IMG/VR virus record: IMGVR_UViG_2671180378_000013
Length of the DNA stretch: 4,719 nt
Strand: one strand, 5' to 3'
Origin: a virus
Lineage: Duplodnaviria; Heunggongvirae; Uroviricota; Caudoviricetes
Shown here piece by piece: positions 3,001-4,719 of this stretch; the first letter of the stretch is position 1; every line of letters starts with the position of its first letter. The position numbers were made by a program.

Positions 3001-4719
3001 GGACGGAGGCGGACTGCATTTTCTGCGCTGGGAGCTGATGGAGGTGTCTGCCGTCACCGTGCCCGCGAATGCGGAATGCACCATCCGGACCATTAAATAT
3101 TTCGACCGCCCGTTTTCTGCCGCGTCCGGCAACCGGAAACCGGTGGTGAAAATCGCATCTTCTGCCGGCGCTTCGGCACAGTCAATAACCTCTTTTCATA
3201 AGGAAAAGTCAGCAATGAATACTGGTGAACAGATTAAAAGTTTTGAAAACAAGCGTGCGGCGCTGGCAGCCTCCCTTGAGGAGATCATGAACAAAGCCGC
3301 AGAGGAAGGCCGCACACTGGATGTGGAAGAGGAAGAGCACTACGACAACACCGCAGCGGAAATCCGTCAGGTGGATGCGCACCTGAAGCGTCTGCGTGAA
3401 CTGGAAACCAGTAAGGCCGCCACGGCACAGCCGGTGAAACAGGCCGGTAACGGGAATGTGGCCACGGTGGCTTCAGCGCCGGTGATCCGTGTTGAGCAGA
3501 AACTGGAGAAGGGGATTGGTTTCGCCCGCTTTGCCAAATCACTGGCCGCGGCTAAAGGTGTCCGCTCTGAAGCCCTGGAAGTGGCCCGTCGTCAGTATCC
3601 GGATGACAGCCGTCTGCATCATGTCCTGAAATCGGCGGTGGGGGCAGGGACCACCACGGACCCGCAGTGGGCAGGCAGCCTGTCTGAATACCAGGAATAT
3701 GCGCAGGACTTTATTGATTACCTGCGTCCGCAGACCATTATCGGGCGATTTGGTCAGGGCGGGATCCCTGCACTTCGTCAGGTGCCGTTCAATATCCGCG
3801 TGCATGCCCAGGTGTCCGGTGGTGCTGCCGGCTGGGTGGGTGAGGGTAAGGCCAGACCCCTGACGAAGTTTGATTTTGAATCCATCACCTTCAGTCATGC
3901 GAAAGTGTCGGCCATTGCGGTACTGACGGAAGAATTGATCCGTTTTTCCAGTCCGGCTGCTGATGCACTGGTCCGTAATGCGCTGGCGGAAGCGGTGGTG
4001 GCGCGTCTGGACACAGACTTTGTGGACCCGAAAAAAGCGGCGGTGGCGGATGTCTCCCCGGCGTCCATCACCCATGATGTGAAGGGCACGGCATCAACCG
4101 GTAACCCGGATGCGGATGCCGAGGCCGCGTTTGGCCAGTTTGTGACGGCAAATCTGCAGCCCACCGGTGCGGTCTGGCTGATGTCCAGCACCAATGCCCT
4201 GGCGCTGTCCATGCGTAAAAATGCGCTGGGGCAGAAGGAATATCCGGACATGACCTTGCTGGGCGGGACCTTCCAGGGGCTGCCGGTGATTGTCTCCCAG
4301 TATGTGGGTGACCAGCTGGTACTGGTGAATGCACCGGATATTTATCTGGCTGATGACGGCGGTGTGGCGGTGGATATGTCCCGTGAAGCGTCACTGGAGA
4401 TGCAGTCTGAACCGACCAGCGACAGCAGCACACCGTCACCGGTGGAACTGGTCTCCATGTTTCAGACCGGCAGCGTGGCCATCCGTGCGGAGCGCTGGAT
4501 CAACTGGCGTCGTCGCCGTACCGCGGCAGTGGCGGTGATCACCGGTGTGAACTACGGAACTGCGTCCGGTGGCTGAGTCTGATGAGGAGGGCGGGAGGCG
4601 TGCGCCCCCCGTAACAGGTTATGGCAAAGATCCGATATCTGCAGGGCACGCATGATGCCCGGGCCGGGGATATCCGCTGTCCCCTATACACATCTCCGAG
4701 CCCACGAGAACGAGGCAGA

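Follow-up and report, generated by a model that had tools for sequence, protein, structure and literature searches.

The question raised by this locus is whether a reading frame, in which the sequence of a prohead protease runs without interruption into that of a major capsid protein (MCP), is translated into one protein or into two. A preliminary description of this DNA had noted that a ribosome-binding site and an in-frame ATG are present at the place where the protease part gives way to the capsid part, and had proposed that a full-length fusion in low amount and a separately initiated capsid protein in high amount are made from this one gene, in a nested arrangement comparable in its logic to the C/Nu3 genes of lambda. 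Based on sequence comparisons with fused and unfused relatives, the gene probably specifies both a protease-capsid fusion and a plain capsid protein. In what follows, the window refers to the entire stretch of 4,719 nt that was analysed.

The fused reading frame and its setting in the prophage

The window is the head module of a lambdoid prophage of the long-tailed, Shiga-toxin-converting kind. Of the 5,426 complete genomes of E. coli, 1,255 contain prophages that match it at ≥90% identity, and with them the protease-capsid fusion gene; it shows 99.7% identity to a lambdoid Stx1a (Shiga-toxin) prophage in E. coli O103:H2. The gene order in this prophage is HNH endonuclease, TerS, TerL, a 645-aa protein, a small ORF, portal, connectors and long tail, and the identical 645-aa coding sequence (CDS) is annotated in RefSeq as 'phage major capsid protein'. 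The genes for TerS (window positions 354-917) and TerL (914-2575) overlap in an ATGA (914-917) formed by the terS stop and the terL start, an arrangement of translational coupling that also links the protease and MCP genes in many of the unfused relatives described below. Upstream of terS, the non-coding region at 155-283 contains a cluster of direct and inverted copies of (A)ATGTTAAC / GTTAACAT (e.g. at 162-171, 230-239 and 253-262, with inverted partners at 270-283), which could be candidate terminase or cos-region binding sites. A palindrome rich in G/C homopolymers, viz. CCCGCCCCGGGGGGGGG, is present at positions 64-79, at the 3' end of the HNH endonuclease gene or just past it, and it is likely a site of length variation or of sequencing error. 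The last 43 nt of the window (4677-4719) are not phage DNA but read-through of a sequencing adapter at the contig end: the genome matches all end at position 4676, and the terminal nucleotides are identical at 31 of 34 positions to the Nextera transposase adapter (CTGTCTCTTATACACATCTCCGAGCCCACGAGAC).

The frame of interest extends from a GTG at 2639 to position 4576 and encodes an S78 prohead protease joined to an HK97-fold MCP (645 aa, 69.4 kDa); this ORF and the other features in and around it for which coordinates are given below are on the plus strand. In Pfam comparisons, it matched Peptidase_S78 (PF04586) at aa 48-151 with 32.7 bits (curated cut-off 21) and Phage_capsid (PF05065) at aa 386-635 with 55.5 bits (cut-off 24.2). 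The GTG is preceded, with a spacer of 5 nt, by an AGGAGG Shine-Dalgarno (SD) sequence (2628-2633), whose duplex energy is -10.3 kcal/mol. Between the terL stop codon and this AGGAGG/GTG, a consensus scan located a terminator-like hairpin (GAACCGC-TGCG-GCGGTTT) with a T-run (2600-2627); this putative element sits within the expected Q-antiterminated late operon and might mask or modulate the upstream ribosome-binding site. The possibility that the fusion is an artefact of assembly or sequencing was considered and is ruled out, since the 645-aa CDS is present (≥90% identity) in more than 1,100 complete E. coli genomes and in a protein cluster with 9,916 members.

The protein was modelled by AlphaFold with an alignment of 87 sequences (mean pLDDT 83). 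The protease domain of this model, aa 17-152 (2687-3094), has pLDDT >90 and agrees with the Pfam S78 match, and the catalytic residues His55 and Ser110, presumably the equivalents of HK97 His65 and Ser114, are invariant in it across the 87 aligned sequences of diverse homologues. It is followed by a disordered and hypervariable linker of aa 153-192 (3095-3214), which has pLDDT <50 at aa 153-190 and varies in length and sequence among homologues, and whose last 16 nt are occupied by the internal ribosome-binding site. Next to it are helices at aa 195-222 and 229-262 (3221-3424), which show a profile match to residues 4-70 of 9gyi, the solved HK97-fold major head protein (385 aa) from EcCI2, a chromosomal island that forms capsids. 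The C-terminal part of the model matches the capsid proteins of Bxb1, D3 and HK97 in Foldseek comparisons (E-values from 2.6e-15 to 1e-10). The helical segment had earlier been described as coiled-coil and scaffold-like, and AlphaFold agrees that it is helical; however, because its helices correspond to the N-terminal 70 residues of 9gyi and the C-terminal part has the HK97 fold, it appears to be, more precisely, the N-terminal delta domain of the MCP, which would direct assembly and would then be removed by the protease. As these helices begin directly after the disordered linker, Met193, which lies between the two in the model, is at a domain boundary, and its placement at the junction of the protease plus linker with the helical segment is agreed upon by Pfam and AlphaFold. 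The frame that begins at Met193 (3215-4576) is a nested ORF of 453 aa (48.4 kDa) consisting of the delta-like domain and the HK97 fold, with Phage_capsid at its aa 194-443.

Translation signals at the protease-capsid junction

In the window, positions 3198-3220 read ATAAGGAAAAGTCAGCAATGAAT. The AAGGAAAAG at 3200-3208 and the ATG at 3215-3217 are located exactly where the preliminary description had placed them, and this ATG is the in-frame codon 193 of the fused ORF, as (3215-2639)/3 = 192. The internal SD region (3199-3208) pairs best with the 3' end of 16S rRNA through UAAGGA (3199-3204), which overlaps AAGGAAAAG and stands 10 nt before the ATG; in the fused frame this TAAGGA is out of frame. 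The strength of this pairing (-6.2 kcal/mol) is only moderate, being at the 13th percentile of in-frame positions in the same ORF. The second codon after the ATG is AAU, the surrounding context is A-rich and weakly folded, and the junction has a figure of 6% on the least-folded scale of the 50-nt windows of this ORF. The motif AAGGA-N5-11-ATG was observed twice in the window compared with an expectation of 1.16, and 64 of 200 shuffled sequences reach this number. Due to this chance-level occurrence in the window, the significance of the motif can come only from its conservation in homologues. The chance-level occurrence is also one of the observations agreeing with an alternative explanation, according to which the SD and ATG are unused leftovers of evolution, only the 645-aa fusion is made, and autoproteolysis frees the mature MCP, with a protease present on every subunit. 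In our rough volume estimate, about 415 copies of the 21-kDa protease together with the delta domains could fit into a T=7 procapsid, which is likewise compatible with this explanation.

The conservation of these signals was examined both in proteins and in DNA. Among close homologues (about 100 sequences of 73-97% identity), Met193 is retained in all, and the linker, while varying in length and sequence, keeps K-E-K, K-G-N or K-G-K. A search of 1.84 billion cluster representatives provided the 150 best matches, with 38-56% identity. These matches represent clusters at 50% identity, and more than 130 of them are fusions that span both the protease and the MCP region and measure 590-870 aa (615-740 aa in most), in which the junction column contains M, or occasionally V or L. 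The fusions are from gamma-, beta- and alphaproteobacteria, and also from some metagenome-assembled genomes labelled Actinomycetales, Clostridia and Phycisphaerae. At the DNA level, 160 further loci were included (80 from bacterial genomes and 80 from IMG/VR viral contigs), and the loci were assigned to three states, viz. fused (141 loci), interrupted by an in-frame TAA that is followed by an SD and ATG (5 loci), and with the protease and MCP in different frames (17 loci); a non-redundant subset comprised 44 fusions of less than 60% identity. A start codon is present at the junction in all 141 fused homologues with DNA (134 ATG, 5 GTG and 2 TTG), where it is placed 4-7 codons before a conserved EQI motif. 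Where the residue at this position is Val its codon is always GTG, and where it is Leu the codon is always TTG, a restriction with a chance probability of about 3e-5 based on the codon usage of each ORF. The 12 linker residues preceding the start codon are, in contrast to this, essentially unconserved, the commonest residue at any of these positions occurring in no more than 15 of the 44 fusions.

The SD was examined in these 44 fusions. At the junction the mean energy of anti-SD pairing is -7.1 kcal/mol, versus -2.4 kcal/mol at other in-frame positions, and the junction is in the top 5% in 22 of the 44, where 2.2 would be expected; the spacing between the SD core and the start codon is 5-12 nt (mode 8), and the second codon is AAx in 33-37 of the 44. 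The junction SD is also no weaker than that of the N-terminal starts of the same ORFs (-7.3 vs -6.2). In the enterobacterial clade, an AGGA is found at -17 to -5 in 28 of 29 unique junctions, compared with 2.7% at other in-frame positions, and the linker DNA around it is otherwise scrambled. When the 50-nt windows of each ORF are ranked by folding, the junction belongs to the weakest 10% in 35 of the 44 fusions, and its GC content is 0.50 compared with 0.62 across the ORF, although the low GC and weak folding could in part result from the Lys/Asn/Thr-rich composition of the linker. Among the 53 other in-frame ATG, GTG and TTG codons of the window ORF that were scored, none joins a conserved start codon with a conserved SD and low structure. 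Met217 was considered as a possible internal start; although its SD is the stronger one in the window (-8.1), conservation is lacking (mean -2.6), and it was therefore rejected. Several of these results are difficult to account for if the signals are unused leftovers, as a neutral leftover should be lost as fast as the linker around it, whereas the ATG is replaced by GTG or TTG only, the junction SD is as strong as those of genuine starts, and the junction RNA is kept unstructured.

It should also be considered whether the purine-rich motif is conserved for a reason other than initiation, either because the protein is constrained at this place (a K-E-G or K-K-G linker or cleavage motif) or because an SD-like pause in translation helps the protease to fold. 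P/K, K/R, E/K and G are over-represented at codons -6 to -3, and one codon phase accounts for most occurrences of the GGA (24 of 34), as would be expected from a constraint of this kind. However, the motif is encoded by different pairs of residues and in three codon phases, and the identical DNA motif is present in unfused relatives where this region is non-coding. Further, a constraint on the protein or a pause would leave unexplained the invariant start codon with its GTG and TTG-only replacements, the AAx second codon, and the identity of this position with the start of stand-alone MCPs. In view of these observations, we regard this explanation as highly improbable.

Unfused relatives and the proposed expression of the fused gene

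In Moraxella phage Mcat2 and in 21 other loci, the homologous protease and MCP are encoded in the same order but by two separate ORFs, with the start of the MCP corresponding to Met193. Stand-alone MCPs of 456-478 aa (viz. P0193, P0233, P0258, P0260 and P0267) likewise start exactly at the Met193 column of the alignment. The two genes in these loci are connected by ATGA or GTGA overlaps (ATGA in the case of Mcat2), by gaps of 0-18 nt, or by an in-frame TAA that is followed by an SD and ATG. The last of these arrangements is seen in five loci (L040, L056, L069, L072 and L152, at about 3070-3135 in each), in which the protease and MCP are in the same frame and are separated only by the TAA and the SD plus ATG after it, e.g. 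TAAGGAACCATTATTATG; a single point mutation would convert these loci to the fused state. It follows from these overlaps, short gaps and TAA-SD-ATG arrangements that single-base changes can interconvert the fused and unfused states.

In a rough neighbour-joining tree of the capsid core, at least 14 switches between the fused and unfused states are indicated, with an inferred fused root. This repeated switching is the principal caveat, since some of the fusions may be young and some of the retained signals could be relics of recent fusion events. The unfused relatives carry the SD and ATG as ordinary intergenic signals. However, deep clades in which all members are fused have completely diverged linkers but still carry the start codon and AGGA, an example being the enterobacterial group that includes the window, whose members differ down to about 50-58% identity. 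The explanation that the junction signals are unused leftovers, with the fusion as the sole product, is thus considered improbable.

Instead, we think it likely that an S78 prohead protease gene became continuous, and in frame, with the MCP gene following it, and that the signals by which the MCP gene was itself translated persist within the fused frame and remain functional, so that one mRNA would give two proteins. The signals concerned would be the UAAGGA, the ATG at 3215, the AAU second codon and the A-rich, weakly folded context. With two predicted initiation sites on one late mRNA, both proteins, in some ratio to each other, would be made: initiation at GTG 2639 with its AGGAGG SD would yield a 69-kDa protein consisting of the protease, the disordered linker, the delta domain and the capsid fold, and initiation at ATG 3215 would yield the 48-kDa MCP alone. 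The steps that may come afterwards are less certain than the internal start. In these steps, the fusion would co-assemble with the plain MCP by means of its delta and capsid portions, this co-assembly would carry the protease covalently into the procapsid, and the protease would then cut off itself and the delta domains. As the start codon, the SD and the unfolded RNA are conserved and the unfused relatives start their MCP at this very residue, the earlier proposal of a nested in-frame capsid gene is supported on comparative grounds, and on the same grounds the analogy to the logic of lambda C/Nu3 holds. The check that had been named for this proposal, viz. conservation of an internal Met and ribosome-binding site at the junction in homologues, was carried out and the signal was found to be conserved.

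A further explanation, which we regard as possible but on the whole unlikely, agrees with the above reading that the internal start is used and differs from it only with regard to purpose. According to this explanation, the fusion has no special role and nothing is set by the arrangement, because the MCP would be supplied from its own start in either state and the protease would work whether free or tethered. The frequent switching, and the one-base routes between the states that are provided by in-frame TAA codons and ATGA overlaps, are in keeping with it. The same is true of the upstream start, which is usually an ATG with a normal SD and gives no general indication of having been tuned down; the E. 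coli clade has GTG, but the upstream start codon is ATG in 38 of 42 non-redundant fusions, and therefore a weak start codon is ruled out as a general means of keeping the fusion scarce. However, the fused forms are dominant, accounting for 141 of the 163 loci and for most of the 150 best representatives (numbers affected by the sampling bias of a fused query), and this dominance, together with the inferred fused root, hints at an advantage of fusion.

Comparison with known head-assembly systems

Nested pairs of genes for a protease and an assembly protein are found in lambda (C/Nu3), Mu (I/Z) and herpesviruses (UL26/UL26.5). The present locus is similar to lambda C/Nu3 in that one frame apparently has two products, of which the long one contains an N-terminal maturation protease and the short one, made from an internal in-frame ribosome-binding site and AUG, would supply the assembly-directing part in bulk. 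Since the long product carries the protease and the short product starts internally, the protease in lambda is tethered to the part that enters the procapsid, and the same would apply here. However, the lambda protease C belongs to S49 (ClpP-like) and its partner Nu3 is a scaffold distinct from the MCP, whereas in the window the protease belongs to S78 and what is nested is the MCP itself, delta domain included; due to these differences, the locus should be interpreted as working like C/Nu3 and not as a member of the same gene family. Further, the lambda pair has been proven biochemically, whereas the pair in the window is known from sequence signals and their conservation. Protease-scaffold fusion as a theme is found in PMC13595911, a CBASS preprint deals with the protease-scaffold fusions of T1-like phages, and the cluster O paper concerns a separate protease.

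With HK97 gp4/gp5, the locus has both protein families (PF04586 and PF05065) and their order in common, as well as a helical, delta-like N-terminal domain; however, gp4 and gp5 are separate genes, whereas the window contains one frame with a 40-residue disordered linker. HK97 gp4 enters the procapsid by means of a non-covalent C-terminal targeting peptide, and work by Duda et al. in 2013 is reported to have described the non-covalent targeting of this protease. A broader proposal can be made, for and against which the chances appear to us about even, viz. that a widespread class of HK97-type head modules exists in which the capsid gene is nested within a protease-capsid frame, the internal start would provide the bulk of the capsid protein, the fusion would replace the targeting peptide by covalent delivery of the protease, and single-base toggling would leave capsid expression undisturbed.

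Fusions of a protease with an MCP have been recorded in other phages. ORF003 of Pseudomonas phage PAJU2, in the order TerS-TerL-fusion-small ORFs-portal, is a homologous full-length fusion with 48% identity, for which the annotation gives one product only, 'prohead protease fused capsid protein'. The junction of this gene reads CAGGAGGGCAACGAC-ATG, i.e. a perfect AGGAGG followed by 8 nt and an ATG. The tripartite gene for the capsid in Gifsy-2, a Salmonella phage, is similar in being a composite head gene of a lambdoid prophage with an N-terminal protease and a C-terminal HK97-like MCP. Effantin et al. in 2010 (Virology 402:355) reportedly described in it a protease of the ClpP-like kind and, in the centre, a domain of some 200 residues. 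The N-terminus in the window differs from this in having only PF04586 (S78), which is followed by the 40-residue disordered linker and the delta helices. Effantin et al. 2010 is cited for the Gifsy-2 tripartite capsid gene in PMC8538268. Protease-MCP fusions encoded by a single gene are also described for Arthrobacter clusters AM, AU and AN and for Rhodococcus RRH1, where they are called unusual, are likened to the HK97 and lambda fusions, and have little or no sequence similarity to each other (PMC5513430; bioRxiv 10.1101/2020.01.10.891226); an internal start is not discussed in these two papers. In the searchable literature on PAJU2, protease-capsid fusions, HK97, Stx phage virion proteomics and Gifsy-2, fusions are described, but no proposal or test of an internal start in protease-MCP fusions was found. 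Thus, while protease-MCP fusions have already been annotated in several phages, the internal start is the new element as far as the searchable literature shows, and covalent encapsidation of the protease with its dosage determined by an internal start is, to the same extent, undescribed.

If both products are made, then the main capsid proteoform is overlooked in the annotation of thousands of prophages, among them those of EHEC's long-tailed Stx1/Stx2 phages, and there would be a simple explanation of how a shell requiring capsid subunits by the hundred, and proteases in far smaller number, can be formed from a fusion. The principle of lambda C/Nu3 and UL26/UL26.5, in which a protease tethered to an assembly-directing module is diluted by an internally initiated copy of that module, would then extend to phages whose scaffold is the delta domain of the MCP. 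The locus would also provide a comparative example of a functional internal start within a coding region, recognizable by start-codon-only substitutions, a conserved SD and unfolded RNA, and examples of this kind can help train detectors of alternative bacterial proteoforms. The internal-start reading is of relevance for annotating a very common EHEC prophage gene, although in principle it would be unsurprising to specialists in phage assembly.

The position of the portal gene also differs between these head modules. In the window prophage the portal follows the capsid gene, whereas in HK97 it precedes the protease. The order TerL, protease::MCP, small ORF(s) and portal is seen in L001 (12354-19371, which corresponds to the window and the region downstream of it) and also in L002 and L003, and the portal is similarly placed after the capsid gene in PAJU2 and Moraxella Mcat2. 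After the portal core in L001, an ORF at 18149-19117 contains 3-4 tandem repeats of about 50 aa each (...DGRDYDPEVLKQAVNDAVANIPVPADGKSITPDDVRPMLEQMVKEAVSHIPAPR...). PGAP joins this ORF to the portal and labels the whole a 'frameshifted' pseudogene; either a genuine head protein with repeats or a programmed frameshift may be the explanation.
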